Shown here piece after piece: positions 1,343-60,385 of a stretch of 64,000 bases of DNA. Within the stretch, counting starts at the first letter, position 1. Each line of letters starts with the position of its first letter. The translations under genes and the position numbers were made by a program. Origin of the DNA: a virus (taxonomy: Duplodnaviria > Heunggongvirae > Uroviricota > Caudoviricetes); IMG/VR virus record IMGVR_UViG_3300048850_000049, positions 55,864 through 119,863 of that record, one strand, 5' to 3'. The notes beneath the pieces were generated by a model. It saw nothing but the letters and a program-made list of their open reading frames with translations, searched no databases and had not been told where the DNA came from.

Positions 1343-1394
1343 AGTAAGGAAGCACTTACTTCCTGCCGCGTTCCAATGACGATCTCGCTATAAC
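1343..1394 (+). promoter_or_regulatory. Phage promoter class (palindrome GTAAGGAAGCACTTACTTCC, -35-like CTGCCGCGTTCCAATG, -10-like CGCTATAAC)
   Basis: Motif instance upstream of gene 1404. Confidence 0.5.
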
Positions 1395-7618: not shown

Positions 7619-7712
7619 CAGGCGGAAGGTCCTTTACGCCGGCGGTATCCACCCGCCGGCAGTGAAAATCAGATAAGAGTTGTTATGGAACTGGCTTGGG
7701 TGGAGTTTCATA

Positions 7713-8300: not shown

Positions 8301-8402
8301 ACCGGTCTCCGCTCCCCCATCAAAACCCTCTAAGAGCTCCTAGTCTCACATTATGAACAAATTAAAATTCGACAAGGCTTTTGTTTCAATTATGAGTGCA
8401 GA

Positions 8403-8479
8403 AAGTAAGTATGCATTGACTTACTTTTTTTTCAGTGGTCTAACGCTTCCGCTGCGATCCCGTGAGTGTCTCGCTATAA
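8403..8479 (+). promoter_or_regulatory. AAGTAAGT..ACTTACTT palindrome plus T8 (terminator-like), then -35-like GCGATCCCGTG and CGCTATAA
   Basis: Upstream of the XRE regulator gene 8532. Confidence 0.5.
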
Positions 8480-8531
8480 TTCAACTATCGAAAGCGAGAT
8501 GCAATTGATTGATAAAAACCGAACCGTATAA

Positions 8532-8963
8532 ATGGGGATTAAGAACATGACAGCGAAGACAGGAAACCAAACACGGTTTTCCACCTTCATAGAAAAGAAG
8601 CTGATGGAGAGCACAAAGACCCAAAAGGAAATTGCGCAAGCCGTCGGCTACAAGAACCAGAATATGATCACCATGCTTAAGCTTGGTGACGTAAAGCTCG
8701 CTCTCGATCGCGTGCCGGCAATGGCAAAAGCCCTTGATATGGATCCTTTGGATCTTTTCAAAATTGCCCTTACCCAATTCTATGACAACGAGTCCGTCTC
8801 CCTCCTCGTAGGGATCATTGAACGAGGCATTTCTCCGGCCGAGCGTAAGATCCTCGAAACCGTTCGGGAAGCCTCAGGAAGTGATACGCCGGAACTTACC
8901 CCAGAACGAGCCAAAAAGCTCGCGAAGGTCTTCGCCCCTGAAAAGGTGAAGGAGCCTGGATAG
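8532..8963 (+). CDS. XRE-family HTH transcriptional regulator
   Basis: QKEIAQAVGYKNQNMITMLKLGDVKL HTH; preceded by the phage promoter motif and followed by an intrinsic terminator. Confidence 0.6.
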   Translation: MGIKNMTAKTGNQTRFSTFIEKKLMESTKTQKEIAQAVGYKNQNMITMLKLGDVKLALDRVPAMAKALDMDPLDLFKIALTQFYDNESVSLLVGIIERGISPAERKILETVREASGSDTPELTPERAKKLAKVFAPEKVKEPG

Positions 8964-8993
8964 TTCACTCACGACCCACCGCGGTTCAACTGG

Positions 8994-9027
8994 AAGCCTG
9001 CTATAAGCCCAAGCAGGCTTTTCTTTT
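8994..9027 (+). terminator. Intrinsic terminator (GAAGCCTGC..GCAGGCTT plus TTCTTTTG)
   Basis: After the XRE gene stop. Confidence 0.55.
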
Positions 9028-9322: not shown

Positions 9323-9366
9323 GCGCAGAAGTAAGTAATCAAATACTTACAAGGAGTTAGCGAAGC

Positions 9367-11643
9367 ATGAACCGCGATATCATCGAACTGCGCGAGGTAG
9401 TTCAAAAGCTCGTTCCTCTGCTTTCTGGTAAAGGGTTGACGGTCACGCAGCGTGGCAGTCAGGCATATGTTTCAACCAACCCTCGCACGAAGCAGCCTGA
9501 GACCGTCAACATTCCCAATATTCCTGACTCCGCCCCGCCTGAGTTCGTCCAGGCGATCCAGGGCTTCATCGATCACGAAGTCGGTCACGTCCTTCATACC
9601 GACTGGAACTTCTACGGCGGCAAGGGCGGAATGTCAGTCGCGGATCTGCAGGATCCGAAGCGCCGCGCTTTTATGAACACGCACAACATCATCGAGGACG
9701 TGATGATCGAGCGGGAGATGTGCAAGACCTTCCCTGGCTCGGCTCGCAATATCTCAAGCACCCGCAAGTGGTTCCTTGAAAAGATCACCAATGAGGCTCT
9801 CAAGGCTACCAAGGATCCCAAGGAGCAGTTCCGCTACCTGATCGTCCCGATGATGCGCGCCATCGGCGGGCATGAGGAAATGCAGGATTTCATGGACGAC
9901 GGCAAGTGGTGGACGAATATCTACGTCCAGGAGCTGCTCACCAAAATGAAGCCTGCGACCATCGAACTCCTCAAGACCTGCACGAACACGGAAGAGACGC
10001 TTGTCATTTCCGAAGAGGTCCACGCGATCATCATGCCTTCTGCTGCTCCCGAAGCTCCGGTTCCGCCCAAGGAAAAGGAAGAAAAGAAGAAGGATGAGAG
10101 GGATGAAAAGAAAAAGAAGGGCAAGTCTGAGGACAAGCCCGAAAAGAAGGCTGACGAGGGCGACGGTGACGGAGAGCGTGATCATGAGGACACCAAGCCT
10201 GATGAGGACGGCGACGGCGATGCCAAGGACGACGAGAAGGATAAGGATGAGGAAGAAGATGCCGGCGCTGATGCTGGCGATGATGATGGCGCCGAGAAGG
10301 AGTCCGATGAGGCGGAATCCGGAGACGATGACGGCGACACGGATACTGACGAGCCGAGCAAGCCCGAGCCGAAAAATGCGGCTTCTGACGACGATGAGGC
10401 TGGTGAGGATGAAGCAGCTGCGGCAGGCGACGACGCCGATGACGACGCGGCTACCAGTTCAGGCGCTTCTGGTATCGGAGCTGAACCCGGCAACGCAGGC
10501 GATGGTGATGAGAGCGACGGTGATGCGGAAGGTGGCAATCCGCCGATCCGCACCGAAGGCGCCGATGGTGGTGGTGTAGGCACGATCGACGGTGGAGATG
10601 ACCACGAACGCCAGGGAGGAGGAGGCGGTGTCGGCAACGAGTCTGCCAAGTCCTTGTTCGACTATGAGGATGACGACTTTGACGAGGTTGATATGTCCTC
10701 GCAGATTGCGATCAAGATCTCCGACGAAGCCGTCCTCGCGATGGATCCCAAGCAGTATCTCGTATTCACTCGCGAAATGGATCAGATCCAGCCGGTCGAA
10801 GTGCCCGAGAAGATGAACAAGTCTTGGGTTCCGGCTATGGAAGACGAAACTCGCCTGATGACCTCAAAGATGTCGAAGGACATCGAACGCGCAATGGCTT
10901 CACAGAGCCACGTCATCCGCACGCCTGGTCACAAGACCGGCAAGCTGCACGCGCCGTCCCTCTTCCGCGTAACCCAGGGCGATCCGCGAGTATTCTCGCA
11001 GCGCCAGGAACACGTTTCAAAGGATACGGCCGTCTCGCTTGTCGTGGACAACTCCGGCTCGATGGGCGGACCCAAGATGAAGCTCGGCATGATCGCCAGT
11101 TACGCCCTCTCCTCGACGCTCGACCGTGTGAAGATCGCTCATGAGGTGATCGGCTTCACGACCGGCGGATACTGGAACGGCGTTCCCGACTCGATCCGTA
11201 GGGCAATGGCTGACGACGCTGCCAAGGCGGGCATTAACTGGGATCGGATGACGCCGATCATCATGCCTATCTACAAGTCCTTTGAAGAACGCATCACTGC
11301 AACGGTGAAGGCGCGCTTCGCCTATATGATGAATGCGCAAGCTGGTCTCAACGGCAACGTTGACGGCGAGTCCCTGCAGTATGCGGCTGAACGCCTGCTT
11401 AAGCGGCCGGAGAAGCGCAAGGTAATGCTGGTTCTGTCCGACGGACAGCCGGCAGGTTCCCACAAGTCGGGCCCTCACCTCTCGCATGTGGTCAAGGATC
11501 TGGAGCGCTTCGGCATCGAATGCGTCGGAATTGGCATCCTGGATGACAGCGTGAAGAAGTTTTATCCGAAATACACCGTCCTTCGGACTGTGGAGGATCT
11601 GCCTGGTCAGGTCATGGCCGAAATCAAGAAGATCCTCATGTAA
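9367..11643 (+). CDS. cobT: CobT-like vWA-domain protein with a long acidic tract
   Basis: C-terminal MIDAS motif DNSGSM (vWA); roughly 200-aa D/E-rich low-complexity middle; HEVGH motif near the N-terminus; paired with a CobS-like ATPase as in phage cobST pairs. Confidence 0.6.
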   Translation: MNRDIIELREVVQKLVPLLSGKGLTVTQRGSQAYVSTNPRTKQPETVNIPNIPDSAPPEFVQAIQGFIDHEVGHVLHTDWNFYGGKGGMSVADLQDPKRRAFMNTHNIIEDVMIEREMCKTFPGSARNISSTRKWFLEKITNEALKATKDPKEQFRYLIVPMMRAIGGHEEMQDFMDDGKWWTNIYVQELLTKMKPATIELLKTCTNTEETLVISEEVHAIIMPSAAPEAPVPPKEKEEKKKDERDEKKKKGKSEDKPEKKADEGDGDGERDHEDTKPDEDGDGDAKDDEKDKDEEEDAGADAGDDDGAEKESDEAESGDDDGDTDTDEPSKPEPKNAASDDDEAGEDEAAAAGDDADDDAATSSGASGIGAEPGNAGDGDESDGDAEGGNPPIRTEGADGGGVGTIDGGDDHERQGGGGGVGNESAKSLFDYEDDDFDEVDMSSQIAIKISDEAVLAMDPKQYLVFTREMDQIQPVEVPEKMNKSWVPAMEDETRLMTSKMSKDIERAMASQSHVIRTPGHKTGKLHAPSLFRVTQGDPRVFSQRQEHVSKDTAVSLVVDNSGSMGGPKMKLGMIASYALSSTLDRVKIAHEVIGFTTGGYWNGVPDSIRRAMADDAAKAGINWDRMTPIIMPIYKSFEERITATVKARFAYMMNAQAGLNGNVDGESLQYAAERLLKRPEKRKVMLVLSDGQPAGSHKSGPHLSHVVKDLERFGIECVGIGILDDSVKKFYPKYTVLRTVEDLPGQVMAEIKKILM
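10040..10690 (+). repeat. Coding low-complexity D/E-rich tract (about 215 aa) inside the cobT-like gene
   Basis: EEKKKDERDEKKKKGKSEDKPEKKADEGDGDGERDHEDTKPDEDGDGDAKDDEKDKDEEEDAG... Confidence 0.8.
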
Positions 11644-11674: not shown

Positions 11675-11709
11675 GCATCCCACATCAGTTTTAAGTAAGC
11701 AATTACTTA
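11674..11709 (+). promoter_or_regulatory. Promoter variant (TTGCATCCCACATC .. TTTTAAG) plus palindrome TAAGTAAGCAATTACTTA
   Basis: Upstream of cobS 11750. Confidence 0.45.
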
Positions 11710-11749: not shown

Positions 11750-13054
11750 ATGAACCAGGTAGTTGAAACTGGTGCAGTCACCGCTGCACCGGACGGGAAG
11801 ATTTTGTGCCATATCGATAACGTTCGCGTTCACTCGATCCAGTCGCACATCCAGAAAAACCATAAGGGCTGGACGATCGAAAAGTATCAGGCCGATTTTC
11901 CTGGTGAACCGATTCTGTCGGACACTGCAAAAACGCTGCTCGCCAAGCGTGAGCAGGAAATGAGCGCCGCGGCTAGTGCTGCGCCGGCCGCTGCATCAGT
12001 TCAGGCGCAGATGGTCGCCGACGCGACCGGCATGTCCGCTCCCCAGGTCATCGTCAATCAAGCGTTCTTCCACGATCTATTCGAACTTGGCGCTGCACCT
12101 TCTGCGCTCTCGACCAAGGGTCAGCCCATCCCGGTCAAGACGCTCTCCGGGCATGACAGCCTCTCGGCCGATTACCTGCCCGAGATCGACAAGGCGTATG
12201 TGTTCAACATTGATCTTCTCAAGAAGGTCATTATCGGCTTGGAACTGAATATTCCCTCCTATCTATGGGGCTATCACGGCACCGGCAAGACGACGCTCCT
12301 GCAGCAGGCTGCAGCGCGCACCCGCCGTCCGTTCATGCGCGTCCAGCATACGATCAATATGCAGGAGTCGGACGTTCTTGGTCAGTGGACCGTGCGTTCG
12401 CGGCCCGTTGAGGTGGAGCAAATCGACCAGACCGGTGTCAAGCACATGGTTGTTCAGCAGCAGTCCGTCACCGAGTTCCAGCTTGGACCGTTGCCGCTCG
12501 CGATGATCAACGGCTGGGTCTACTGCGCCGATGAATACGATTTCGCGATGCCGTCTGTAACTGCGGTCTATCAGCCGGTTCTCGAAGGCCAGGCGCTGAT
12601 CATCAAGGATGCTCCTGCACACTTCCGCAAGATCGTCCCGCATCCGAACTTCCGCTTCGTTGCAACCGGCAACACCAACGGCATCGGTGACGAAACCGGT
12701 CTCTATCAAGGCACGCTTGTGCAGAACGCAGCCAACTATTCCCGCTTCGGCATCACTGTCGAGGTCGAATACATGGAAGCGAAGATCGAACAGGCGATCC
12801 TCACCTCCAAGACCGGCATCGACGCGGCGAACGCCTCGAAGATCGTCAAGATGGCGAATGAGGTGCGCAAGATGTTCCGCGATGGCAAGATCACCATGAC
12901 GATCTCGCCGCGTGAGCTGCTCCGCTGCGCTTCGCTCGGGATCGCTTACGGCGGTAACTGGACGCTCGGTATGGAGCTCGCTTTCGCAAACCGTCTGTCG
13001 CGCGTCGATAAGAAGGTTGTCCAGGAATACATGCAGCGGGTGTTCGGATCTTGA
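11750..13054 (+). CDS. cobS: CobS-like AAA+ ATPase (AAA_5/MoxR type)
   Basis: Walker A GYHGTGKTTLL; follows the vWA partner directly; RBS AGAGGGAA. Confidence 0.6.
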   Translation: MNQVVETGAVTAAPDGKILCHIDNVRVHSIQSHIQKNHKGWTIEKYQADFPGEPILSDTAKTLLAKREQEMSAAASAAPAAASVQAQMVADATGMSAPQVIVNQAFFHDLFELGAAPSALSTKGQPIPVKTLSGHDSLSADYLPEIDKAYVFNIDLLKKVIIGLELNIPSYLWGYHGTGKTTLLQQAAARTRRPFMRVQHTINMQESDVLGQWTVRSRPVEVEQIDQTGVKHMVVQQQSVTEFQLGPLPLAMINGWVYCADEYDFAMPSVTAVYQPVLEGQALIIKDAPAHFRKIVPHPNFRFVATGNTNGIGDETGLYQGTLVQNAANYSRFGITVEVEYMEAKIEQAILTSKTGIDAANASKIVKMANEVRKMFRDGKITMTISPRELLRCASLGIAYGGNWTLGMELAFANRLSRVDKKVVQEYMQRVFGS

Positions 13055-13056: not shown

Positions 13057-13710
13057 ATGACGCAGTATCGCGATCCGAAGGAAAGCCGCGCCCAGATTAA
13101 GGCTTTCGCTCACAAGGTTCTCCGCCGGGTGCATTCACTCGGCGCGAGGACGCAGACACTGGACGATGTTGAGGGCGAATTGTGGGTAGCATGGTGCCTC
13201 GCCTGTGAACGCTTCAATCCGGAAGCAGGCTGCGCCTTCTCGACCTATCTCTACACGGGTATGCGCCGGCACATTAATCGCTGGATCGAAAAGAATTTCG
13301 AGCGCTTCCACGATGAGACGGTCGCCGCGTCCCTAGACGCTTCCTATGGGTCAGAGATGTCTGAGGATGGTTCGGGCTCGACGCTCGGCGAGGCAGTCGC
13401 TGACACGCATATGCGTCAAGACCAGGAATACGAGCAGAAGGATTGCTTCGCTTACGCCCTCACCCGGTTGTCTGACCGCGCCAAGATGTTCCTGACCTTC
13501 CTTAAGGATCATCCGCCCGAGCTGATGGCGCAGATGAAGGATCTCGAAGCGAAAGCGAAGCACGCGAAGGAACTTGGCGTCACCTATGCCATGCCCAACC
13601 GTCTCACCAGCTTCATGATCTTCGATTTCATGGGCGCTACTCGCGTCGAACGGAAGCAAATTATGGACGAGGTTGCCCAGGTGGGGCAGCTGATTTCGAA
13701 CCAGGGTTAA
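13057..13710 (+). CDS. Sigma-70 family protein (region 2-like)
   Basis: ERFNPEAGCAFSTYLYTGMRRHINRWIEK resembles sigma region 2.1-2.4 (FNPE.G..FSTY....IR..I); start overlaps the cobS stop. Confidence 0.55.
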   Translation: MTQYRDPKESRAQIKAFAHKVLRRVHSLGARTQTLDDVEGELWVAWCLACERFNPEAGCAFSTYLYTGMRRHINRWIEKNFERFHDETVAASLDASYGSEMSEDGSGSTLGEAVADTHMRQDQEYEQKDCFAYALTRLSDRAKMFLTFLKDHPPELMAQMKDLEAKAKHAKELGVTYAMPNRLTSFMIFDFMGATRVERKQIMDEVAQVGQLISNQG

Positions 13711-13711: not shown

Positions 13712-14260
13712 ATGACGACTATTCCTCAACTATCTCCAGGTTGCTTCGGCTCTGCCGTGGCGTTCAAAAAGGACGACACGGTATGCCGTGGCTGCAAGTT
13801 CGCGCAGCTATGTGAACCGGCACACCTGAATGCTCAAAAGGCTCTCCGCGATCGCTACGGCATCAAGACCACGCAGGAGGTTCTCACCGATCGAGCAAAG
13901 GCTCGTGCCGAAGAGAAGGCGCTGCGTGAGGCATCGCGGGACGCAGCTGCTTTGGTCCTGCCTAAAAAGACGCAGGAGCTGATCGATCGGCTGGATCGCG
14001 GTTCCTATGACGTGAAGGGCAAGCTCTCGCGCGGCGAGAATCCCTTTGGAGCATCAATGCGCTTCATGCAGATGGCAGCCCACATTCTCTTGAGAATGCC
14101 GGGCGATATCACCCGCGCCACGATCGCATCCGCCTACGTCCGAAAATTCGAATGGCAGCAGGGCACGGCTGACGCTCATGCGCGAATGGCAATCCAGGCG
14201 CTCGAGCACGTAGGCGCAATTATTAACAACGACGGCATCGTGTCGGTTCGGAGGAACTAA
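13712..14260 (+). CDS. Hypothetical protein
   Basis: Translationally coupled ORF with phage-like codon usage. Confidence 0.4.
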   Translation: MTTIPQLSPGCFGSAVAFKKDDTVCRGCKFAQLCEPAHLNAQKALRDRYGIKTTQEVLTDRAKARAEEKALREASRDAAALVLPKKTQELIDRLDRGSYDVKGKLSRGENPFGASMRFMQMAAHILLRMPGDITRATIASAYVRKFEWQQGTADAHARMAIQALEHVGAIINNDGIVSVRRN

Positions 14261-17200
14261 ATGCACTCAATTCTCGCAGCCCGCACTGACTTTTCAGTCG
14301 GTGAAAGCATCCTCACGACCAAGTTTCTCATCAAGAATGCGGTCGATGCGGGTGCCAAGGCAGTCGCGATGACGGATACCATGTCTGTCACCGGCATGAT
14401 CGACTTCACCGGCAAGGCGAAAGCTGCAGGATTGAAGCCTATTATCGGCGTCCGCCTGCGCCTGGTGGACAATCCGGAATGGCGTCCTGGCGACGGCGAG
14501 AAGAAGAAGGACATGCCGCGTCCCTACTTTCTGACGCTCTATGCGCTGAAAGAAGCTGGCATCAAGGCGATCTTCCGGCTGCTGACGCTCGCAAACGGCG
14601 CAAGTCGCTTTTATTACGAGCCGAAGCTCGGCTTCACGGATCTCTATGATGAACTGAGGGCCATCGAGGGTGACGAGTTGGCGATTGTCCTTGGCGATGC
14701 GCACTCGGTTCTGGAGCATCCTGACGCAGACGAGATCGTCCGCAATCTCAGCGCCGAGGTCACGCATCTTTATGCGCCGCTGATTCCTATCGACACGCCC
14801 TATTATGGGCGTCTTAACGAGATCGCCCTGCGGATTATCGCTGACACTTACGCCAAGCCGATTATCGTTCGTCCCGCCTTCTATGGTCAGGGCGAAGCTG
14901 ACACGCAGGAGATCATGACCGCGATCTCCGACAATCATAAGATTACCGATGGCTGGTTTAAGTCGCGTCACAACCGCGACATGCACGTCATGAGCCTGAC
15001 CGAACTCGTAGGTCAGATGAAGATTGCAGTCCAGCACCTTGAAAAGCGAGGCATTGTTGGCGCTGGCGCTGAGTTCAAGCAGGGGCTGCTCAACACGGGC
15101 GTTCTCGTCGCTGCCGTCGAATATGAATGGTCAAAGGCCGAGGTCTCGCTGCCTATCATGGCGCCTGATGAGTTCGCCGCTTTGCTGGAAGAATGCAAGA
15201 AGGGCTGGAAGATCCGCTTTGATGCTCCGGTCTTCGGACATCAACCGACGCCGGCCGAATTGTCGACCGTCTACAAGGAGCGGCTTGCCTACGAATTGCA
15301 GACGCTCAAGCGGCTCAACTTCTCGGGTTACTTCCTGCTCGTGCAGGACGTGGTGCAATTCGCCAAGAACAGCGACATTCTGGTTGGTCCTGGTCGTGGT
15401 TCCGTGGGCGGATCCCTTGTCGCTTATCTAATGGGCATTACCGAGTGCGATCCTATCCGGTTCGGGCTGCTTTTCGAGCGCTTCATCAATCCTGACCGTA
15501 TCGATCTTCCCGACGCCGATCTCGACTTCATGTCCGAGCGCCGGCACGAGATTTTCGAATACCTGGTCAAGAAGTATGGCGATGCGCGCGTCGCAGGCGT
15601 TTCGAACTTTGGAACGCTCGCTTCCGCCTCGTCAATCCGCGATGTTGGCCGCGTGACCAACATTCCTGAAAAGGACTATTCGGTCTCAAAGTTCGTGCCT
15701 AAGAAGAACGGTCAGAACATTCCCCTGCCCGACTGCCGCAAGGCAGTTCCCGAGATCGATGCGTTCGCTAACAACTATCCGGCTTTCTGGCCAATCATGG
15801 AACGGCTTGAAGGCACGATCCGCAACTTCGGACAGCACGCAGCTGGTGTGGTCGTCGGCGGAGTTGATCTTGTAGAGCGTGCCGTCATTGAACGGCGCAA
15901 GGACGGCTCTGTCGTCTGTTGGGACAAGCGCATCGTCGAGGATCAGGGCCTGGTCAAGATGGATATTCTTGGTCTTGTTACCCTCGATCTTATCAAGCTG
16001 ACGCTCGATTATGTTCGCGAACGTTCCGGCAAGCGTGTGGATATCAGCCGGATTCCCCTCGATGATGAGAAGGTTCTTGCGAACTTCGTCAAGGCGAACA
16101 CGACCGCGGTCTTTCAGTTCGAGTCCGGTGGTATGCGCCGGCTTCTGAAGGAACTCGGCTCGACCGGCTCGATCACGTTCGAGGATATCACCGCCGCAAC
16201 TGCTCTTTACCGTCCTGGTCCGATGGAATCGGGCATGATGGACAGCTTCTATCTGCGCAAGCAGGGGCATGAGACCATTGAATATGACCATCCGCTGATG
16301 GAGCCGGTGCTCGAGGAGACCTTCGGCGTCATCGTCTACCAGGAACAGGTCATGAAGATCTCCCAGGTGATTGCCGGCTACTCCGGTGCCGCTGCTGACA
16401 AGCTGCGCAAGATCATGGGTAAGAAGCTGCCCGAGGAAATGAAGAAGGAGCGCCAGAAGTTCTGCGATGGCTGCGTCGCCACGATTGCTTGCACCGAAGA
16501 ATGGGCAGGCGAGCTTTTCGACAAGATTGAAGGCTTCGCCGGCTACGGCTTCAACAAGAGCCACTCGGTCGAATACACGCTGATCTCCTACCAGGCGATG
16601 TGGCTCAAGACCTATCACGCCGTCGAGTTCTACGCGGCTGCCCTGACGCTTCTGAAGGAAGAAAAGCTGACTGGCATTATCCGCGATGCAAAGGCCCTCG
16701 GCATCGATGTATCCATGCCTGACATCAACATTTCGACCAACCGGTTCGAGATTGCGACGGACGCAAGGCTTGTGATGCCGTTCCAGCGTATCAAGGGACT
16801 GTCTCAGAAGGCGACTGACGCGATTATTAACGCTCGGGCGGCTGGTCCCTTCAAGGACAAGACCGACTTCCTCAATCGTGTGGAGAAGCGCGTCTGCAAC
16901 GTGAAGGTGCAAGGCGCTCTGGATCTTGTCGGCTCTTTTGCCCGCATCGAGCCTGGCCAGGTGGCCGCGAACGATCCGAGCCGCATCAAGGACCAGATCG
17001 AGCTCCTGCCCGGTCTCATCGCCGTCCATGTGCCTATCGATCATGAACTCAACCGCGACAAGGATACGAAGGTCGCGCTCGGCGAGCTGGTTGACGAATA
17101 TCGCGCAGCGCACGGTCCTGCCGCAACGGTCGCTGACGGATATCCGGTCAAGCCGTTCTTCGGCAAGGAAGCGTCTGCGATGGTGATCTCGGATGCTCCC

Positions 17201-17620
17201 GGCAATGAGGAAGATACGGGCGGCATCATGGGCTTCTCGATGTCAAACAACTCCGTCATCGAGGCGCTGGAAGAAAATAGCCTTGATAGAACGCATATTT
17301 ACTGGACGGCGCTCATCAAGCGTCCGAAGCGCGGCAAGCAGGTCACGCCTGACGAAATTGCGATGTATTGGCCGTATCTCGAAAAGGAGATCGAGATCCT
17401 GCAGCCGCCTATCATCGTGCTTCTCGGCTCGCAGACGGTTCGCCACTTCATGCCCGACTTCAAGGGCAAGGCGTCCGACATGGCCGGCAAGGTAGTCTAT
17501 TCGAAGAAGTATGACGCAAACCTGGTGATCGGCTTCTCGCCTGGCGAAATCTACCATGATCCGGACAAGCAGACGAACATGAATGAGGTCTTCTCCTCAG
17601 TTGCGGACATGCTGGCATGA
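14261..17620 (+). CDS. dnaE: DNA polymerase III alpha (compact DnaE) fused to a C-terminal degenerate UDG family-4-like domain
   Basis: N-terminal PHP (ILAARTDFSVGESIL..), GYGFNKSHSVEY polymerase core, HhH; C-terminal about 180 aa aligns to family-4 UDG (ISDAPGNEEDTGG, PIIVLLGSQ, GFSPGE) with GE->SD and HP->SP substitutions and no Fe-S cysteines. Confidence 0.8.
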   Translation: MHSILAARTDFSVGESILTTKFLIKNAVDAGAKAVAMTDTMSVTGMIDFTGKAKAAGLKPIIGVRLRLVDNPEWRPGDGEKKKDMPRPYFLTLYALKEAGIKAIFRLLTLANGASRFYYEPKLGFTDLYDELRAIEGDELAIVLGDAHSVLEHPDADEIVRNLSAEVTHLYAPLIPIDTPYYGRLNEIALRIIADTYAKPIIVRPAFYGQGEADTQEIMTAISDNHKITDGWFKSRHNRDMHVMSLTELVGQMKIAVQHLEKRGIVGAGAEFKQGLLNTGVLVAAVEYEWSKAEVSLPIMAPDEFAALLEECKKGWKIRFDAPVFGHQPTPAELSTVYKERLAYELQTLKRLNFSGYFLLVQDVVQFAKNSDILVGPGRGSVGGSLVAYLMGITECDPIRFGLLFERFINPDRIDLPDADLDFMSERRHEIFEYLVKKYGDARVAGVSNFGTLASASSIRDVGRVTNIPEKDYSVSKFVPKKNGQNIPLPDCRKAVPEIDAFANNYPAFWPIMERLEGTIRNFGQHAAGVVVGGVDLVERAVIERRKDGSVVCWDKRIVEDQGLVKMDILGLVTLDLIKLTLDYVRERSGKRVDISRIPLDDEKVLANFVKANTTAVFQFESGGMRRLLKELGSTGSITFEDITAATALYRPGPMESGMMDSFYLRKQGHETIEYDHPLMEPVLEETFGVIVYQEQVMKISQVIAGYSGAAADKLRKIMGKKLPEEMKKERQKFCDGCVATIACTEEWAGELFDKIEGFAGYGFNKSHSVEYTLISYQAMWLKTYHAVEFYAAALTLLKEEKLTGIIRDAKALGIDVSMPDINISTNRFEIATDARLVMPFQRIKGLSQKATDAIINARAAGPFKDKTDFLNRVEKRVCNVKVQGALDLVGSFARIEPGQVAANDPSRIKDQIELLPGLIAVHVPIDHELNRDKDTKVALGELVDEYRAAHGPAATVADGYPVKPFFGKEASAMVISDAPGNEEDTGGIMGFSMSNNSVIEALEENSLDRTHIYWTALIKRPKRGKQVTPDEIAMYWPYLEKEIEILQPPIIVLLGSQTVRHFMPDFKGKASDMAGKVVYSKKYDANLVIGFSPGEIYHDPDKQTNMNEVFSSVADMLA

Positions 17621-18243
17621 TGCCCCGGCCGGAACACTTTGTCCGGCTGGTGTCAGTGGAGCCGGAGAAGAAGACCCTGCTACAGAAGCTTGGAGATTTC
17701 GTCAGCGGGATCTTCAAGCCTGATACCGAGGCCGAAGATCGCCGCAACGCTGAATGGGCAAAGCTCCTAACGGCTAAGCAACCTGTGCCGCGGGCTCCTA
17801 TGCGAAGTCCGATGCTTATTCGGCCGCAGCAGGCGAAAATCTCAGGCAGTCCCACCAAGATTGGTTACGACGCCCCTCAACACCTGCCTGTCTGCGCAAG
17901 CGGAAACATCATTCTCTACGAGGACTTGGTTTTCGGAAGGTATTCAATGGAAGAATGGAACGACATGGAAGAGGAAGAACGCGAAGAGGTTCTCGAAGAG
18001 TGGAACGCCAACGTTGAAATGAGCGAACACGACAAGATTTCCAACCTCGCTACTTTCGGTATTCAGCCGCCCGTGCCTATCGATCCGCAAGAAGCTGCGG
18101 TTCGTCGTATGCACGAGAGGGCGGTTGCCAACAATCTCGCCCGCGACATGGAAGCCCACAAGAAGAAGCTGGAACTTGAGCTGGCAGAAGCCGAGGAGCG
18201 GGAGAAGCATTACACCGGCAACGCAATTTTCGGCGCGTTCTAA
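17617..18243 (+). CDS. Hypothetical protein with C-terminal AIFGAF tail
   Basis: ATG overlaps the dnaE stop (ATGA); ends ..GNAIFGAF. Confidence 0.45.
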   Translation: MMPRPEHFVRLVSVEPEKKTLLQKLGDFVSGIFKPDTEAEDRRNAEWAKLLTAKQPVPRAPMRSPMLIRPQQAKISGSPTKIGYDAPQHLPVCASGNIILYEDLVFGRYSMEEWNDMEEEEREEVLEEWNANVEMSEHDKISNLATFGIQPPVPIDPQEAAVRRMHERAVANNLARDMEAHKKKLELELAEAEEREKHYTGNAIFGAF

Positions 18244-18244
18244 A

Positions 18245-18275
18245 TGCGCGTCCCGAGCGCAGTCTCGCTATAATT
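18245..18275 (+). promoter_or_regulatory. Promoter (TGCGCGTCCCGAG .. TCGCTATAA), no palindrome
   Basis: Upstream of gene 18300. Confidence 0.45.
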
Positions 18276-18299: not shown

Positions 18300-18866
18300 A
18301 TGACGACTCCGACGACGGCCGACGCCGCAAAGGAAGTTACGACCTATCCGGTCAGGGACTTTCTCGACGCTCATCAATTGAAGAAGGATCTCGCCTTCTC
18401 TCCCAACAACCTGACGGATGCCATGATTCAGCAGGCGTCGATGTTCTCGCATTATGGCGTGCTTGCGGCCGACGCATCCCGTCAGGTCGACGTGGTGAAG
18501 ATGCTGCTTGAGAATACCGAGGCAGCAGTTTCCCAGATCATCCGCGATGAAGTGGCAAAGGCCGGCGAAAAGGTGACTGAGGCCGGAATCGCAACCAAGA
18601 TCGCCCGTCATCAGCGCGTCGTATCGATGAAGAAGGCTTTGAACGAAGCCAAGCGCATCGAAGCCATCGGCAAGACCGCAGTTGAGTCCTTCCGGCACCG
18701 GCGTGACATGCTGGTGCAGCTCGGGCTCATCAGCCGTGAAGAAATGAAGGGTGAGCTTCGGATCGGCGAAAAGTCGGCCCGTGAACAGGCGGCCGAGACG
18801 TCCAAGGAGCTTGCTCTTTCGCGCCTTGCCCGGAAGAACACCGTAAGCGAAAATTCTGACAATTAA
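18300..18866 (+). CDS. Hypothetical protein
   Basis: Preceded by the GCTATAA promoter motif and an RBS. Confidence 0.45.
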   Translation: MTTPTTADAAKEVTTYPVRDFLDAHQLKKDLAFSPNNLTDAMIQQASMFSHYGVLAADASRQVDVVKMLLENTEAAVSQIIRDEVAKAGEKVTEAGIATKIARHQRVVSMKKALNEAKRIEAIGKTAVESFRHRRDMLVQLGLISREEMKGELRIGEKSAREQAAETSKELALSRLARKNTVSENSDN

Positions 18867-18867
18867 G

Positions 18868-18915
18868 TGCAATCCCTTTCATTTTGCGCTATAAAGTAAG
18901 TAAGCACTTACTTAG
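18868..18915 (+). promoter_or_regulatory. Promoter (GTGCAATCCC .. TTTGCGCTATAA) plus palindrome AGTAAGTAAGCACTTACTTAG
   Basis: Upstream of gene 18943. Confidence 0.55.
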
Positions 18916-18942
18916 TGTGAATCCTCTCTACTGGAGAATATC

Positions 18943-19222: not shown

Positions 19223-19279
19223 TGCGATCCCATGCCGAGGTCGCTATAAGTGAATTAGCTAAATAGCTATCTAGCTATG
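19223..19279 (+). promoter_or_regulatory. Promoter (TGCGATCCCATG .. CGCTATAA) plus a second operator type TTAGCTAAATAGCTATCTAGCTA
   Basis: Upstream of the SSB gene; the same TAGCTA-repeat operator recurs at 54861. Confidence 0.55.
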
Positions 19280-19287
19280 AAGCAGGA

Positions 19288-21465: not shown

Positions 21466-22572
21466 ATGAGTAGTCCCGCAGATATTATGAAGGCGCTGAC
21501 CGGCGTCATCGGCGACAACGACGAAGAGGCAACCGTCAAGCATTATCTCGACACCGGCTTCCCGCCGCTCAACAACGCCTCGGCTTCCGATTGGAACGGT
21601 GGATTGCCTGTTGGGCGCGTGATCGAGATCGCCGGTCCTCCGTCATCCGGCAAGACCGCAATCGCAACCAAGGCAATGGCTGCGGCACAGGCTGCAGGCG
21701 GTGTTGCTGGCTTTATGGACCATGAGCGGTCGTTCTCGATGGGTTTGGCACCGAAGCTCGGTCTCGATATCACGCCTGGCCGCCTGATCTACAAGAAGCC
21801 GCAGACGTTCGAGGATTCAGTTGCGATCTTCCACCTGGCCGTCAAGACGATCCGCGATAAGAAGCTGATCGCCAAGGATGCACCGATCTGTTGGGTATTC
21901 GACAGCCTTGCCGCAATGGTCCCTCAGTCTGTTTTGACGGACTCGAAGGGCAAGGAGCGCGATGCGACTGACCGCAACATGAACGACAACACGGCACTTG
22001 CCCGTGCAACGTCGGCGCATTTCCCGGCGATCGCCATGATTGCAGAGCAGTATGACGTTCTGGTCATCTTCCTCAATCAGATCCGCACCAAGATCGGCGT
22101 TGTGTTCGGTGATCCGCGCAAGACGACGGGTGGCGACAGCCCTGCTTTCTACTTCTCGCAGCGTCTCTGGCTTTCGGCCGCACAGATCCAGGACTCGGTG
22201 ACGAAGGAAGTCATCGGCATGAAGGTTACGGGTTCGTTCGTCAAGAACAAGGTCGCCCGTCCCTTTGCAAAGGCATCCTGGCGCTTCATGTTCATGCCCG
22301 ACGGAACTGGACGCTTTGACGCCGAAGGCAGCCTGGTAGACTTCCTTGTCGATCAGAAGCTGCTTCCGACCGTCAAGCCGGACGGCAAGGATTGCCGCAA
22401 GGGCTATGTGATGTGGGATGGTAAGGAAGTCTCGCGTAACGCGCTCGGCAAGGTCATCGAGGCGGAAGGTGCTGCTGGCTATAACAAGCTGAAGGCATTG
22501 CTGCCGGCCAAGTATGAGGCGCCGGTCGTCTCTGAGGTCGAAATGGACGAGCTTGCAGCCGAAGCAGCCTAA
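21466..22572 (+). CDS. recA: RecA recombinase
   Basis: GRVIEIAGPPSSGKT Walker A; VIFLNQIRTKIGVVFGDPRKTTGG matches the RecA L2/ATPase core. Confidence 0.85.
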   Translation: MSSPADIMKALTGVIGDNDEEATVKHYLDTGFPPLNNASASDWNGGLPVGRVIEIAGPPSSGKTAIATKAMAAAQAAGGVAGFMDHERSFSMGLAPKLGLDITPGRLIYKKPQTFEDSVAIFHLAVKTIRDKKLIAKDAPICWVFDSLAAMVPQSVLTDSKGKERDATDRNMNDNTALARATSAHFPAIAMIAEQYDVLVIFLNQIRTKIGVVFGDPRKTTGGDSPAFYFSQRLWLSAAQIQDSVTKEVIGMKVTGSFVKNKVARPFAKASWRFMFMPDGTGRFDAEGSLVDFLVDQKLLPTVKPDGKDCRKGYVMWDGKEVSRNALGKVIEAEGAAGYNKLKALLPAKYEAPVVSEVEMDELAAEAA

Positions 22573-22600
22573 TCCCTGCATTCCCTCGCCCGACTTGCTA
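22566..22600 (+). promoter_or_regulatory. Promoter (CTGCATTCCCTCG .. TGCTATAA)
   Basis: Upstream of gene 22636. Confidence 0.45.
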
Positions 22601-22635
22601 TAAGTGAAAAATCGAAACAGCAGGTCGGGCGTGAA

Positions 22636-23503: not shown

Positions 23504-23520
23504 GTTCCGCGCACAACCTG

Positions 23521-23575
23521 ACGCATCCCAACTCGTCATTTGCTATAACAAGATTAATCAGTAATTACTTACTTA
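23521..23575 (+). promoter_or_regulatory. Promoter (ACGCATCCCAAC .. TGCTATAA) plus palindrome CAGTAATTACTTACTTA
   Basis: Upstream of gene 23588. Confidence 0.5.
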
Positions 23576-24960: not shown

Positions 24961-25024
24961 CGCAATCCAAGCGCTGATATGTCAAAACATATTAACGCAC
25001 TGAAAACGCATAGGAAAATAGATC

Positions 25025-25777: not shown

Positions 25778-25780
25778 TCC

Positions 25781-28439: not shown

Positions 28440-28452
28440 GCGCAACAATCAG

Positions 28453-28499
28453 CGCAGTCCCGATAGATTTGCGCTATAAAGTAAGTAAGCACTTATTTA
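28453..28499 (+). promoter_or_regulatory. Promoter (CGCAGTCCCGAT .. TTTGCGCTATAA) plus palindrome AGTAAGTAAGCACTTATTTAC
   Basis: Upstream of gene 28513. Confidence 0.55.
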
Positions 28500-28512
28500 C
28501 TAGGAGATCGAA

Positions 28513-32568: not shown

Positions 32569-32597
32569 AGGGGCGCTTCGGCGCCTCTCTCTTTTTG
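32569..32597 (+). terminator. Intrinsic terminator (AGGGGCGC-TTCG-GCGCCTCT plus CTCTTTTTG)
   Basis: After the glutaredoxin stop. Confidence 0.55.
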
Positions 32598-32645
32598 TGC
32601 AGTCCCGAGAACATTTCGCTATAAGTTAAGTAAGCACTTACTGAC
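32598..32645 (+). promoter_or_regulatory. Promoter (TGCAGTCCCGAG .. CGCTATAA) plus palindrome GTTAAGTAAGCACTTACTGAC
   Basis: Upstream of gene 32655; overlaps the upstream terminator. Confidence 0.55.
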
Positions 32646-35871: not shown

Positions 35872-35890
35872 CTTCCCGCGAACAACCTAA

Positions 35891-35945
35891 TGCGCTCCAA
35901 CGAGCGCATCGCTATAACTCTGAATGTAAGTAAGCACATACTGAC
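35891..35945 (+). promoter_or_regulatory. Promoter (TGCGCTCCAAC .. GCTATAAC) plus an imperfect palindrome
   Basis: Upstream of gene 36056. Confidence 0.45.
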
Positions 35946-37543: not shown

Positions 37544-37587
37544 GTCAACTGGCGCGCTCTTCGGGGCGCGCCACCCTCACTCATTAC

Positions 37588-37645
37588 CTACCGCATCCCA
37601 ACAATTGCTGCGCTATAACGATGTCAGTAAGTAGTTACTTAAGAG
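37588..37645 (+). promoter_or_regulatory. Promoter (CTACCGCATCCCAAC .. CGCTATAAC) plus palindrome CAGTAAGTAGTTACTTAAG
   Basis: Upstream of the GHKL ATPase gene. Confidence 0.55.
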
Positions 37646-41490: not shown

Positions 41491-41521
41491 TAACTCCCGA
41501 CAATATAGCGCGCAAAATCGA

Positions 41522-41568
41522 AGCACTCCCTCGACTTGCGCGCTATAAAGTAAGTAAGCACTTAATTA
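41522..41568 (+). promoter_or_regulatory. Promoter (GCACTCCCTCGAC .. GCGCTATAA) plus palindrome AGTAAGTAAGCACTTAATTAT
   Basis: Upstream of the RNA ligase gene. Confidence 0.55.
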
Positions 41569-42196: not shown

Positions 42197-42880
42197 ATGA
42201 CGATCACTCACCGTCACAGCGGCATCAACACCCCGACGACGGCTCCCGTCGCCACTGGTCGCGGACCTTACATGCACTCCTCCAACGGCCGGAAGATTTA
42301 TCCGTTCGATCCGCGCCCGGAGGAATTGAACATCAACGTGATCGCGCACCACCTGGCCTGCAATAATCGCTGGAACGGCGCAACGCAGCACAAGCGGTTC
42401 AAGTCGCGCATCTCCTTCTCCGTTGCAGAGCATTCGGTCCTGGTCGCAAGGTATATGGTCGAACACCTGAAGCGTCCTGACCTGGAGCTGGAAGCGTTAA
42501 TGCACGACGCACCGGAATATCTCCTTTCTGACATGATCCGGCCGATCAAGCACGATCCGCGCGTCTATCCGGTTTACAAGCCGCTTGAAGACAGGGCCGA
42601 GAAGGTGATCGCTGAGCGGTTTGGCCTGATCTATCCGCTTCCGCCCGAGGTCAAGATGGCTGACGAGGCTGTCTGCGCGGCCGAGGCCATTCAGATCGTT
42701 CCCAAGGATGAGCGCGACGAATGGATCTCCGGCAAGATGCACGATGATAGCCGGGTTGCTCCTTACGAAATCCAGATGCTCGGCGCCTACGCCGCGAAGG
42801 AATTGTTCCTGGTCGCCTATGAAGAAGCCATTCGTCGCCGGCCTGACTTCCACATGCTTCCGTCTTCTGTTGAGCTATAA
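42197..42880 (+). CDS. HD-domain phosphohydrolase (YfbR-like 5'-deoxynucleotidase family)
   Basis: H..SVAEHS ... LMHDAPE HD motifs. Confidence 0.6.
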   Translation: MTITHRHSGINTPTTAPVATGRGPYMHSSNGRKIYPFDPRPEELNINVIAHHLACNNRWNGATQHKRFKSRISFSVAEHSVLVARYMVEHLKRPDLELEALMHDAPEYLLSDMIRPIKHDPRVYPVYKPLEDRAEKVIAERFGLIYPLPPEVKMADEAVCAAEAIQIVPKDERDEWISGKMHDDSRVAPYEIQMLGAYAAKELFLVAYEEAIRRRPDFHMLPSSVEL

Positions 42881-42900
42881 CATAAGTAAGAAAATACTTA
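42853..42900 (+). promoter_or_regulatory. Promoter (CATGCTTCCGTC .. AGCTATAAC) plus palindrome TAAGTAAGAAAATACTTA
   Basis: Overlaps the 3' end of the HD-domain gene; upstream of 42914. Confidence 0.5.
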
Positions 42901-44840: not shown

Positions 44841-44845
44841 CTCTC

Positions 44846-44880
44846 CTGCCGCATCCCAAAGCTGTCTGCGATACAACTAA
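44846..44880 (+). promoter_or_regulatory. Promoter variant (CTGCCGCATCCCAA .. GCGATACAAC)
   Basis: Upstream of gene 44922. Confidence 0.4.
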
Positions 44881-45686: not shown

Positions 45687-45743
45687 TAGGCCGCTACGCA
45701 AAGCGGGCGGTGAATCCCACCAGGTTCATCGCCCGCTCACTAC

Positions 45744-45795
45744 CTACCGCACTCCAAATTCAATCGCGCTATAAACTAAGTAAGAAATTACTTAG
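45744..45795 (+). promoter_or_regulatory. Promoter (CTACCGCACTCCAA .. CGCGCTATAAAC) plus palindrome CTAAGTAAGAAATTACTTAG
   Basis: Ends 1 nt before ATG 45797. Confidence 0.55.
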
Positions 45796-47119: not shown

Positions 47120-47535
47120 TGTCGCGCCGTTTCCCAAAGCTTCGGGTCAATAAGAAGGGCATGGCTGTTCTATCTGGGATTCATATCCGAGACCTACAGT
47201 CGATCTTCACCTCTGCCTCGATCCATCATTATGAGACGGAGCGCACTATCAAGGCCAAGGCCGAAAAGGTGGAGCGCGACGCCCAGGAGGACAATCTCGG
47301 CCTCGCCGATGTTATCCGCGAGAACTATAAGAGCGACCAGACCTGGGCAAGGCGAATGCGCCTGCTGATCAATGCATTGGAAACGCCAGGCTACAACCAT
47401 GGCTACGACAACATTCCTGTCATTCAGCTAGATGGCCTCGGCCGTTTCTGTCGGCTCCGCGCCGTCAAGGAAGAGCGCAAGGGTCGCTTGGTCATCGAGG
47501 ATATCATGAAGAGTTTCGGCAAGGGGCGCTCTTAA
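47101..47535 (+). CDS. Hypothetical protein
   Basis: Coupled ORF. Confidence 0.4.
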   Translation: MGGSRLMSRRFPKLRVNKKGMAVLSGIHIRDLQSIFTSASIHHYETERTIKAKAEKVERDAQEDNLGLADVIRENYKSDQTWARRMRLLINALETPGYNHGYDNIPVIQLDGLGRFCRLRAVKEERKGRLVIEDIMKSFGKGRS

Positions 47536-47536
47536 C

Positions 47537-47570
47537 CTACCGCGCTCCAACAGCATTCACGCTATAACTT
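47537..47570 (+). promoter_or_regulatory. Promoter (CTACCGCGCTCCAAC .. CGCTATAAC), no palindrome
   Basis: Upstream of the 663-aa gene. Confidence 0.5.
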
Positions 47571-50115: not shown

Positions 50116-50150
50116 GGAAGCGTTCATCACCTGATGCGCTTCCGTTTTCA
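50116..50150 (+). terminator. Intrinsic terminator (GGAAGCG..CGCTTCC plus GTTTTCATTTG) that overlaps the next promoter
   Basis: After gene 49650..50072. Confidence 0.45.
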
Positions 50151-50185
50151 TTTGCGCTATAAGATCAGTAAGAACTTACTTACTC
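50133..50185 (+). promoter_or_regulatory. Promoter (GATGCGCTTCCG .. TTTGCGCTATAAG) plus palindrome CAGTAAGAACTTACTTACTC
   Basis: Upstream of gene 50200 and the nadM-nadV genes. Confidence 0.55.
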
Positions 50186-52892: not shown

Positions 52893-52908
52893 GCCGCTCA
52901 CTCCCTTC

Positions 52909-52950
52909 AGCACTCCGTCACGATCAACGCTATAAGTAATTCATTACTTA
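52909..52950 (+). promoter_or_regulatory. Promoter (AGCACTCCGTCAC .. CGCTATAAG) plus palindrome AGTAATTCATTACTTA
   Basis: Upstream of the small-TM/SPFH module. Confidence 0.5.
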
Positions 52951-54113: not shown

Positions 54114-54146
54114 GTCCGAGAGTCCCGTCCAAACCCGGCAATTGTC

Positions 54147-54180
54147 CTGCCGCACTCCAATTCTTAATTCGATAAAATGA
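54147..54180 (+). promoter_or_regulatory. Promoter variant (CTGCCGCACTCCAA .. CGATAAAA)
   Basis: Upstream of gene 54212. Confidence 0.45.
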
Positions 54181-55920: not shown

Positions 55921-56053
55921 AGCGTATTTTCCTTTTACACCCCTCCCCTTAAACCTTTGGTTTAAAGCGGAACTCGCGCGGCAGGTATTAGCTCAAATTG
56001 ATGTATTGGCAATAGGCATGTTTGCGGCATCAGTCGCAAGAAAGTCAGATTCT

Positions 56054-56090
56054 GTGCGTTTCCTACACTGGCACGCTATAAGTAATATAT
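56054..56090 (+). promoter_or_regulatory. Promoter (TGCGTTTCCTAC .. CGCTATAAG)
   Basis: Upstream of gene 56133. Confidence 0.45.
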
Positions 56091-56475: not shown

Positions 56476-56727
56476 ATGAATGTTATCAACCGACAGCGGC
56501 TCGAGTTTGCAGCCGCTGGGTTTCTCAATGAGATGCGCAAGCAATGGGTGCAGATGCACCCCGAGGATCCCTGCCCCATTAAGTCTCTTGCTGAATATCC
56601 GCCGGCGCAACGTTCTGCTCTGATGGCCGGTATTCAAAAGTCGATCCAGTTCGCCGGCACTGACACCGATGTCGCCTTTGCGGCCTGGGTAGAGCGAAGG
56701 GAAGAAGAGAAGGCGCGCACGACCTGA
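56476..56727 (+). CDS. Hypothetical protein
   Basis: ORF on the coding strand. Confidence 0.4.
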   Translation: MNVINRQRLEFAAAGFLNEMRKQWVQMHPEDPCPIKSLAEYPPAQRSALMAGIQKSIQFAGTDTDVAFAAWVERREEEKARTT

Positions 56728-56774
56728 CGCAATCCCATTTTCTTTTGCGCTATAACATAAGTAATCGCTTACTT
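56726..56774 (+). promoter_or_regulatory. Promoter (ACGCAATCCCAT .. TTTGCGCTATAAC) plus palindrome TAAGTAATCGCTTACTTA
   Basis: Upstream of gene 56793. Confidence 0.55.
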
Positions 56775-58452: not shown

Positions 58453-58513
58453 CTCACTTCCAAGCGCAAGCCGAATTCTTTTGCGCTATAAGTTAAGTAA
58501 TTGCTTACTTATA
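58453..58513 (+). promoter_or_regulatory. Promoter (CTCACTTCCAAGCGC .. TTTGCGCTATAAG) plus palindrome GTTAAGTAATTGCTTACTTATA
   Basis: Upstream of gene 58561. Confidence 0.55.
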
Positions 58514-60323: not shown

Positions 60324-60350
60324 TGGGAACACGCTTCGAGCGATCATCAC

Positions 60351-60385
60351 CTACCGCACTCCAACGCTGTAATTGCTAAAACTGT
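60351..60385 (+). promoter_or_regulatory. Promoter variant (CTACCGCACTCCAAC .. TGCTAAAAC)
   Basis: Upstream of gene 60416. Confidence 0.45.

Follow-up and report, generated by a model that had tools for sequence, protein, structure and literature searches.

A gene for a sigma-70-family protein and a set of dispersed promoters lie on the same strand of a 64,000-nt stretch of a tailed virus (Caudoviricetes; IMG/VR record IMGVR_UViG_3300048850_000049, positions 55,864 to 119,863; hereafter the window), and the question raised by this locus is whether the first serves the second. A first-pass annotation of this DNA had proposed the protein as the cognate factor of the promoter class, on the grounds that a phage sigma would explain the atypical -35 region of these promoters. 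Here we found that the protein is a bona fide member of the sigma-70 family and that the promoter class is real. The proposed link between the two is plausible from sequence comparison, and we estimate its probability at roughly 0.45.

The sigma-70-family protein

The gene and the parts of its product are located as follows (aa, amino acids).

13057..13710, +, sigma-70-family gene, 217 aa (open reading frame and translation, Pfam, PHROG 351, annotated homologs)
13099..13293, +, sigma region 2 (aa 15-79), core binding and -10 recognition (Pfam match, profile, model helices)
13306..13413, +, acidic low-confidence linker (aa 84-119), similar to the region 3.2 'sigma finger' and leading into region 4.1 (model confidence, profile)
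13414..13707, +, sigma4-like C-terminal domain (aa 120-217)

The open reading frame (ORF) begins with ATG 13057 and ends with TAA 13708-13710; a mechanical ORF list starts it at TTG 13051, and the N-termini of homologs favor the ATG. Its third-position GC content (0.71) is like that of the other genes of the window. Pfam Sigma70_r2 (PF04542) was matched over aa 15-79 with an E of 2.5e-9 (37.3 bits, against a curated cut-off (GA) of 24), and the segment originally singled out as region-2-like, ERFNPEAGCAFSTYLYTGMRRHINRWIEK, corresponds to residues 51-79 and falls within this match. The product also matched PHROG 351, 'RNA polymerase sigma factor' (2e-15). A word-indexed search recovered 38 homologs of 210-223 aa, and an exhaustive profile search recovered 838 representatives at E <=1e-3 and 152 at E <=1e-30, nearly all of them full length (~200-220 aa). 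Sigma70_r2 exceeded the Pfam threshold in every family member scanned, first 27 of 27 and then 84 of 84.

When a family profile built from 84 members (A3) was compared with PDB, it aligned to region 2 of SigA, RpoD and RpoS with E down to 4e-13. The signature residues of regions 2.2/2.3 align to DLIQEG..GL..A..KF....G.KFSTY of SigA/RpoD, with D37, E41, L42, A49 and F61 invariant or nearly so in the family and an aromatic residue (Y/F) at position 64. In region 2.3 the F-S-T-Y motif is kept and the W-W dyad (equivalents of W433/W434) is replaced by T-G. A second stretch of the profile (q82-142) aligned to SigA 277-339, in region 3.2/4.1; this match is weak (i-E, the E-value of the single alignment, 0.002), and the alignment was reproducible in four primary sigmas, with the pattern 'sLd..g.e....l.d.i.d......L..LSpRar.fv.L'.

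The AlphaFold model of the full-length protein (predicted local distance difference test, pLDDT, 78.7) has two helical domains and a disordered linker, with sigma2 helices at aa 7-27, 35-52 and 61-80 (pLDDT 85-93) and pLDDT <50 for aa 84-107. All of the 50 best Foldseek matches to this model were sigma factors, with TM scores that are low because the two sigma domains are free to move. The predicted model gives the C-terminal domain a region 4 fold, resembling sigma region-4 structures that include sigmaE region 4 on -35 DNA, and differing from canonical sigma4 by an extra helix plus loop of ~25 aa (aa 154-184) that separates the 4.1 helix from the helix-turn-helix (aa 185-216). Sigma70_r4 and r4_2 were not matched in the 27 members, nor in any of the 84 even at E up to 1, and a C-terminal profile (A2) compared with PDB returned no sigma and noise only. 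Of the two regions that the first-pass annotation proposed to look for in Pfam, region 2 was matched, whereas region 4 escaped sequence detection and is recognized by its modeled fold.

The supra-threshold region 2, the region 3.2/4.1 profile match and the sigma4-like C-terminal fold bear out the earlier family assignment. The protein belongs to the sigma-70 family; its sigma2 is like that of RpoD and its sigma4 has diverged strongly, and the ORF very probably encodes a divergent, phage-encoded factor of two domains.

A promoter class with a host-type -10 and a private -35 box

The class promoters of the window, with their weight-matrix scores where available, and one related -35-type box are listed here.

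1360..1394, +, class promoter, score 37.9
8446..8480, +, class promoter (8473) before the HTH_3 regulator gene, score 30.0
8973..9007, +, class promoter (9000) upstream of the sigma operon, GCGGTTC-N12-GCTATAAG, score 24.9
11675..11709, +, -35-type box GCATCCC-N12-AGTAAGC in the cobT-cobS gap (from sequence)
18240..18274, +, class promoter, score 20.4
18861..18895, +, class promoter followed by palindrome, score 33.6; orthologs in B1VFA, L007, L008 and L009
19216..19250, +, class promoter (19243), score 30.9
22570..22604, +, class promoter, score 29.8
23515..23549, +, class promoter, score 33.0
28446..28480, +, class promoter followed by palindrome, score 33.7
32591..32625, +, class promoter followed by palindrome, score 29.1
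35884..35918, +, class promoter, score 35.9
37585..37619, +, class promoter ('37588' of the first-pass annotation), CCGCATCCC-N12-GCTATAAC (from sequence), score 36.1
41515..41549, +, class promoter followed by palindrome, score 32.3
42847..42881, +, class promoter, spacing shifted by 1 nt
44843..44877, +, class promoter with weaker -10, score 19.4
45741..45775, +, class promoter, best score in the window, 40.3
47534..47568, +, class promoter, score 38.5
50129..50163, +, class promoter, spacing shifted by 1 nt
52902..52936, +, class promoter, score 27.6
54144..54178, +, class promoter with weaker -10, score 22.5
56048..56082, +, class promoter, score 20.6
56722..56756, +, class promoter, score 22.3
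58458..58492, +, class promoter, score 31.8
60348..60382, +, class promoter with -10 variant GCTAAAAC, score 31.7

The 24 class promoters all lie on the + (gene) strand and have the form GCRNYCC-N12-GCTATAA, within a full consensus of (a)CC.ac.GCa.TCC, 12 nt, and GCTATAA(c/g/a). The spacing of 12 nt is off by 1 nt at two or three sites, the -10 region is near-invariant (1.8-2.2 bits per position), and the GCRNYCC box at the -35 position is asymmetric. A weight matrix derived from the class itself matched 22 of these sites on the + strand and none on the - strand, with 0-1 matches in shuffled sequences; applied to 929 kb of related loci, the same matrix gave 74 gene-strand matches versus 0 on the opposite strand. 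The dispersed promoters first proposed from the sequence are thus real; in the one reported at 37588, GCTATAA begins at 37612.

The -10 half, GCTATAAC, fits the RpoD -10 consensus of Caulobacter, GCtANAWC (PMC8144410), as well as the CTATAT of S. meliloti (PMC2873474). The host -35 box, TTGaCgS, is paired with the -10 within a 10-19-nt window (PMC8144410), and GCRNYCC, located 12 nt upstream, lies inside that window yet is unrelated to TTGaCgS. The class is a real one, in which the host-type -10 is kept and the host -35 is replaced by a private box.

We found 24 gene-strand class matches in the complete genome of the related Rhizobium phage B1VFA, where they are limited to the early/middle 68 kb, with none at 31-85 kb (partition, packaging, head, tail and lysis genes). 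Lineages whose sigmas are 45-51% identical have the class as well, as does a lineage with a 28%-identical sigma, and it is weaker in the phage RHEph10. A scan of viral contigs with the 15-mer CCTACCGCAYTCCAA was uninformative, as nearly all matches were lone chance occurrences.

Some class promoters form a subclass with a longer upstream box, (C)ACCTACCGCAYTCCAA, often with the -10 GCTAAAAC and without the palindrome described below (47569-47590 and 60383-60400 in the window). Those of B1VFA (23722-30994 and ~40.3-41.5 kb) share the leader motif T.ATCATCA.CAAC, to which the window leaders are loosely similar, and the subclass may represent a separate temporal class. TAGCTA repeats (tgaattAGCTAAATAGCTATCTAGCTAtg) are located at 19251-19280 (+), after promoter 19243 and upstream of a gp32-like SSB gene; AGCTA-rich repeats also follow the orthologous promoter in B1VFA and in the related loci L007, L008 and L009.

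Does the sigma factor read the class promoters?

If so, the factor would bind host core RNA polymerase, its RpoD-like sigma2 would read the host-type -10, GCTATAA(c), and its idiosyncratic sigma4 would read the private GCRNYCC at the place of the host TTGACGS. The host core enzyme would then be directed to roughly 24 early/middle promoters of the window, and the early/middle lytic genes, having no host -35 boxes, would not be expressed before the sigma is made. Since class promoters (9000 and possibly 11675) lie in the sigma operon itself, the sigma would reinforce its own expression once a little of it had leaked through.

Protein and promoter show a parallel composition consistent with this mechanism: sigma2 is nearest to primary sigmas and the -10 is that of the host, and sigma4 has no sequence likeness to known region 4 and the -35 is private. 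The rigid spacing and the asymmetric box would suit a monomeric reader, such as a single sigma bound to core. The gene strand of the window has few host-type promoters (2, versus 6.9 expected), which suggests that something besides plain RpoD recognition is needed. The sigma and the class are found together in every lineage, to a sigma identity as low as 28%. In loci whose sigma has the helix motif R.ER..I, we counted 82 two-box sites on the gene strand versus 20 on the opposite strand (658 kb), and the 11 most divergent loci (L197-L208), which lack R.ER..I, had two such sites, equal to background, with -10-like TATAAT elements persisting.

A number of observations weigh against this reading. 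The covariation of box and helix motif is confounded by overall divergence, since the independent lineages are few and a phage factor of any kind would diverge alike; all of these loci belong to one phage lineage, with no sigma-less relative among 57 loci, and co-variation therefore cannot separate the sigma from another co-inherited factor. With T-G in place of the W-W dyad, sigma2 need not read the -10 as RpoD does. Upstream of the sigma operon we found no host-type promoter beyond chance, only the class sites 8473 and 9000 and the 11675 box, so that either the host holoenzyme must use some class sites or transcription enters from outside the window. The near-absence of host-type promoters from the window as a whole also leaves little from which the cascade could start. 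The class serves early/middle genes only, whereas several characterized phage sigmas act on middle/late genes, and its absence from 31-85 kb of B1VFA implies that a late-acting sigma would need different targets. Finally, with a host-like -10, host RpoD plus a phage activator (the T4 MotA/AsiA logic) would give the same promoter anatomy. The proposal that a phage sigma explains the atypical -35 region is thus partly sustained: the pairing of a host-type -10 with a private -35, the fixed spacing, the asymmetric box and its loss along with the helix motif agree with it, and the missing host-type promoter upstream and the lack of sites in the structural module do not.

Alternatively, the sigma may serve another, later promoter set (e.g., packaging/structural), with RpoD reading the class -10 and a second phage protein binding GCRNYCC; candidates for the latter are the Cys4 protein and the HTH_3 regulator encoded nearby, as an activator or as a MotA/AsiA-like sigma-appropriation pair. 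We consider this unlikely, although it would accommodate the location of the sigma gene inside a class-promoter operon, the confinement of the class to early/middle genes, a -10 that equals the host consensus and the presence of a conserved, DNA-binding-looking neighbor. GCRNYCC is centered near -30, as is the MotA box in T4 middle promoters, and characterized phage sigmas (T4 gp55, SPO1 gp28 and gp33/34, and phiEco32 gp36) drive middle/late genes. However, the B1VFA late module has no separate conserved motif fit for a sigma-specific late promoter: a search of the late modules of B1VFA and RHEph10 gave host-like hexamers at a handful of sites and no separate motif assignable to the sigma. The promoter-like elements found there (TTGCAA-N17-TACAAT and TTGATA-N17-TATTAT in B1VFA; TTGACG-N17-TACCAT in RHEph10) are host-like, which suggests that late genes are not obviously in need of a special sigma, and the recurrent late element is the AT-rich palindrome, which fills the spacer between the hexamers. 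Moreover, no MotA or AsiA homolog was seen, and two factors would be needed where one would do.

It is less probable still that host RpoD alone reads the class through the near-perfect GCGCTATAA -10, which would render the -35 dispensable, with GCRNYCC as a regulator site and the sigma as an accessory that, for example, lowers host transcription by competing for core or acts at a few promoters outside the window. Such an arrangement would account for the first transcription of the sigma operon, for which only class promoters are present, and for the almost invariant -10 region. Rhizobial and Caulobacter RpoD promoters, however, depend on the TTGAC -35, as judged from single -35 changes (PMC8144410), and the private box keeps its distance (12 +/-1 nt) in 24/24 sites and in lineages with sigmas as little as 28% identical, which argues that GCRNYCC belongs to the promoter itself. 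We regard it as very improbable that the protein is a degenerate relative of sigmas that has lost its role in initiation (and is, e.g., a regulator that binds DNA, or an accessory of replication alongside cobS/cobT and DnaE): the loss of the region 2.3 W-W, the lack of a sequence-level match for sigma4 and the rigid embedding of the gene among replication genes would fit, but the region 2.2/2.3 signature positions are kept across the family, and at least 152 clusters (50% identity) retain the full two-domain architecture with its 3.2-like linker, a sign that sigma function is under selection.

Should the sigma indeed read the class, the locus would be a case of natural modular promoter rewiring, in which the -10 was kept, the -35 swapped and the sigma domains diverged to match. 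An orthogonal sigma/promoter pair would also become available for rhizobia, and a poorly understood group of phage-plasmids would turn out to have a simple master switch. Otherwise, the protein would be one more annotated phage sigma. As B1VFA and its host are in culture, the question is directly testable.

The sigma operon and its control

The genes around the sigma gene are the following.

8532..8963, +, Cro/CI-type HTH_3 regulator gene (Pfam HTH_3, 25.6 bits versus a cut-off of 23; PHROG transcriptional regulator families)
9367..11643, +, cobT-like VWA gene, same operon as sigma (CobT_C, 8.5e-40)
11750..13054, +, cobS-like AAA+ (MoxR-type) gene (AAA_5 and CbbQ_C; PHROG 249)
13712..14260, +, Cys4 protein gene, starting 1 nt after the sigma stop
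14261..17620, +, DnaE-like DNA polymerase III alpha gene (ORF), with no gap to the Cys4 gene

The stop codon of the cobS-like gene (TGA 13052-13054) lies 2 nt before the sigma ATG, and the same junction measures -4 to +2 nt in six other lineages, which suggests that a compact, probably translationally coupled layout is conserved, in agreement with the coupling and operon placement first proposed. The gene downstream of the dnaE-like gene overlaps it by 4 nt. The sigma gene is directly upstream of dnaE in 57/57 related viral contigs with enough flank, and in 55/57 the Cys4 gene sits between the two. Homologs of the DnaE-like product in related loci carry PHP, DNA_pol3_alpha and uracil-DNA glycosylase (UDG; PF03167, at the C-terminus) domains, which suggests that the polymerase of these loci is a DnaE-UDG fusion. 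The cobT-like VWA protein has a ~200-aa acidic low-complexity insert (D, E, K, G; ~10050-10650) between its N-terminal and VWA parts.

The sigma gene had been described as having no promoter motif of its own within the operon. This holds for the strict motif and for the weight matrix, which gives no site between 9000 and 18267 (promoter 8973..9007, with an orthologous site in B1VFA at 94678, is the last class site before 18267), and it is qualified by the -35-type box 1.38 kb upstream of the gene. That box, GCATCCC at 11675-11681, is followed at exactly 12 nt by AGTAAGC, which forms the left arm of the palindrome TAAGTAAGCAATTACTTA. A G(C/A)NNNCC box at 12-nt spacing was found in each of the seven lineages examined (the window, RHEph10, B1VFA, L007, L008, L009 and L010), and the site is a possible weak internal promoter. 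Directly after the -10 of the promoter heading the operon, at 9005-9020 (+), there is a terminator-like hairpin with a T-run (AAGCCCAAGCAGGCTT TTCTTTTG), which may be an attenuator. The HTH_3 gene lies between a RepC-like gene and the sigma operon and is preceded by class promoter 8473 together with a weak, overlapping host-like TTGATT-N16-TATAAA at 8505.

The Cys4 protein (182 aa) has four cysteines that are invariant across 42 sequences (C11, C25, C28 and C34; C-x13-C-x2-C-x5-C), in a spacing that may be WhiB-like, and also an NPF motif, likewise invariant, and a C-terminus that looks like a winged helix; no relative was found in Pfam or PDB. A FlgM-like anti-sigma assignment was not supported, as the E of 0.098 obtained with 7 sequences rose to 2.7 with 42, with no Pfam match. 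Because its gene is strictly linked to the sigma gene, its position makes it a candidate partner or antagonist of the sigma, possibly with a metal or Fe-S site.

An AT-rich palindrome, TAAGTAA-N2-6-TTACTTA, is present just upstream of ribosome-binding sites, at ~-6 to +13 after many class promoters, and also without a promoter in the cobT-cobS gap and in the late module of B1VFA. Its copies in the window are located at:

11692-11709, 18893-18916, 23560-23575, 28482-28505, 29601-29622, 32627-32650 and 37268-37289
37626-37647, 45779-45800, 50167-50188, 52935-52956, 56760-56781 and 58496-58517; also 9330-9350

B1VFA has about 33 copies, including copies across the structural module, some of which fit exactly, as a 17-nt spacer, between a -35 and a -10 hexamer of host-like sequence. 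RHEph10-type phages have a different palindrome, GTCAGTCAATATTGACTGAC, at equivalent positions. The variable center would favor a hairpin over a dimer site of fixed spacing, but the hairpins predicted for the RNA have little stability (-4 to -7 kcal/mol, z -0.2 to -2.4), and the element may act as RNA or as DNA.

Putting these elements together, one may tentatively envisage that this lineage of alphaproteobacterial phage-plasmids hides its early/middle lytic programme: ~50 promoters per genome without a host -35 and with the host -10 kept would be gated by one self-activating sigma, whose sigma2 would mimic that of RpoD and whose sigma4 with its inserted helix would read the 7-bp box, with the Cys4 protein as partner or antagonist and the AT-rich, hairpin-forming palindrome, located at the start of nearly all operons, as a second control layer. 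We consider this full scheme possible but doubtful.

Relatives and phage background

The nearest deposited genomes are those of the Rhizobium phages B1VFA, V1VFA-S and RHph_X66 (~78% nucleotide and ~70% protein identity), and the sigma orthologs of RHEph10 (gp045), RHph_Y2_11 and RHph_N1_10 have ~35% protein identity. In all these phages the ortholog is already annotated as a sigma-70-family factor (B1VFA_132 in B1VFA). These orthologs share the length, the Sigma70_r2 match and the cobT-cobS-sigma-hypothetical-dnaE order seen here, and B1VFA has the same promoter class; the window is a new relative of the B1VFA group at about 78% nucleotide identity. B1VFA and V1VFA-S are ~120-kb siphophages with parA, parB, repC and 3.6-kb terminal repeats, and their announcement is silent on promoters and on the role of the sigma beyond its name (PMC12509600); the records of the phages listed here likewise assign to it neither promoters nor a function. 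The window belongs to a Rhizobium siphophage of ~105-125 kb with phage-plasmid features; the RepC-like plasmid replication gene that it carries (RP-C and RP-C_C; 4874-5974, - strand) is consistent with those published for B1VFA. Among the homolog contigs, several of ~117-122 kb are labeled as plasmids of Rhizobium, Ensifer or Agrobacterium isolates.

The region from the RepC-like to the HTH_3 gene (~6454-8530) is ~2 kb longer in the window than in B1VFA, and contains an MtlR-like ORF (7713-8300, -) and a 368-aa ORF of low third-position GC with no matches (6512-7618, +). A hidden phage RNA polymerase was considered as another possible reader of the class promoters, and none was detected; the 1205-aa ORF of B1VFA encodes a beta-helix protein, and further large ORFs encode an ATPase and a GHKL protein. 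In B1VFA (L005/L006/L004), a ~50-bp repeat with ATGGACGGGAAT, preceded by gtgcatataat, occurs in three copies (~40.2, 54.3 and 84.2 kb) that bracket the packaging/structural module, the 54.3-kb copy being flanked by its own inverted copy; this repeat may be a packaging or regulatory site. Rfam gave no family match within the window. ARAGORN called a tRNA-Phe(GAA) at 36574-36641 (+), in an intergenic gap, and a tRNA-Trp-like sequence at 34358-34435 (-), inside an opposite-strand ORF and probably spurious. In B1VFA, a tRNA-Cys lies just upstream of the class promoter at 475.

Comparison with known systems

By analogy, the sigma would work most like a two-domain factor of the extracytoplasmic function (ECF, group 4) type, and yet it fails the ECF model. 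It shares with these factors the compact sigma2-linker-sigma4 layout without regions 1.1 and 3 (217 aa, as in a ~200-aa two-domain protein, with faint region 3 matches in 6/84 members only) and the lack of the W-W dyad; a putative cognate promoter in its own operon and a tightly coupled downstream gene are also ECF-like. On the other hand, the class promoters have neither the AAC -35 nor the CGT -10 of ECF promoters, sigma4 has the ~25-aa insertion, and the downstream gene is no recognizable anti-sigma. ECF membership was rejected, with TIGR02937 at 34.0 bits versus a cut-off of 42.9, and with best PDB matches of the primary type and no ECF among the top 60.

With the phiEco32 gp36/7-11 sigma, SPO1 gp28 and gp33/34, and T4 gp55, the protein would share the use of a phage sigma-family protein on host core. 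The sigma gene of phages 7-11 and phiEco32 is preceded by phage-specific promoters of its own (PMC4331800), and the present gene resembles it in this respect. These phage sigmas, however, serve middle/late genes, whose promoters have a single element or are very different (TAATGTATA; TATAAATA), and host promoters are present at the sigma genes as well, whereas the candidate promoters described here have two boxes, keep the host -10 and precede early/middle genes; T4 gp55, unlike the present sigma, lacks sigma4. The same promoter logic is found in the MotA/AsiA middle promoters of T4, in which a host-type -10 is likewise combined, at fixed spacing, with a phage box near -30 that replaces the -35.

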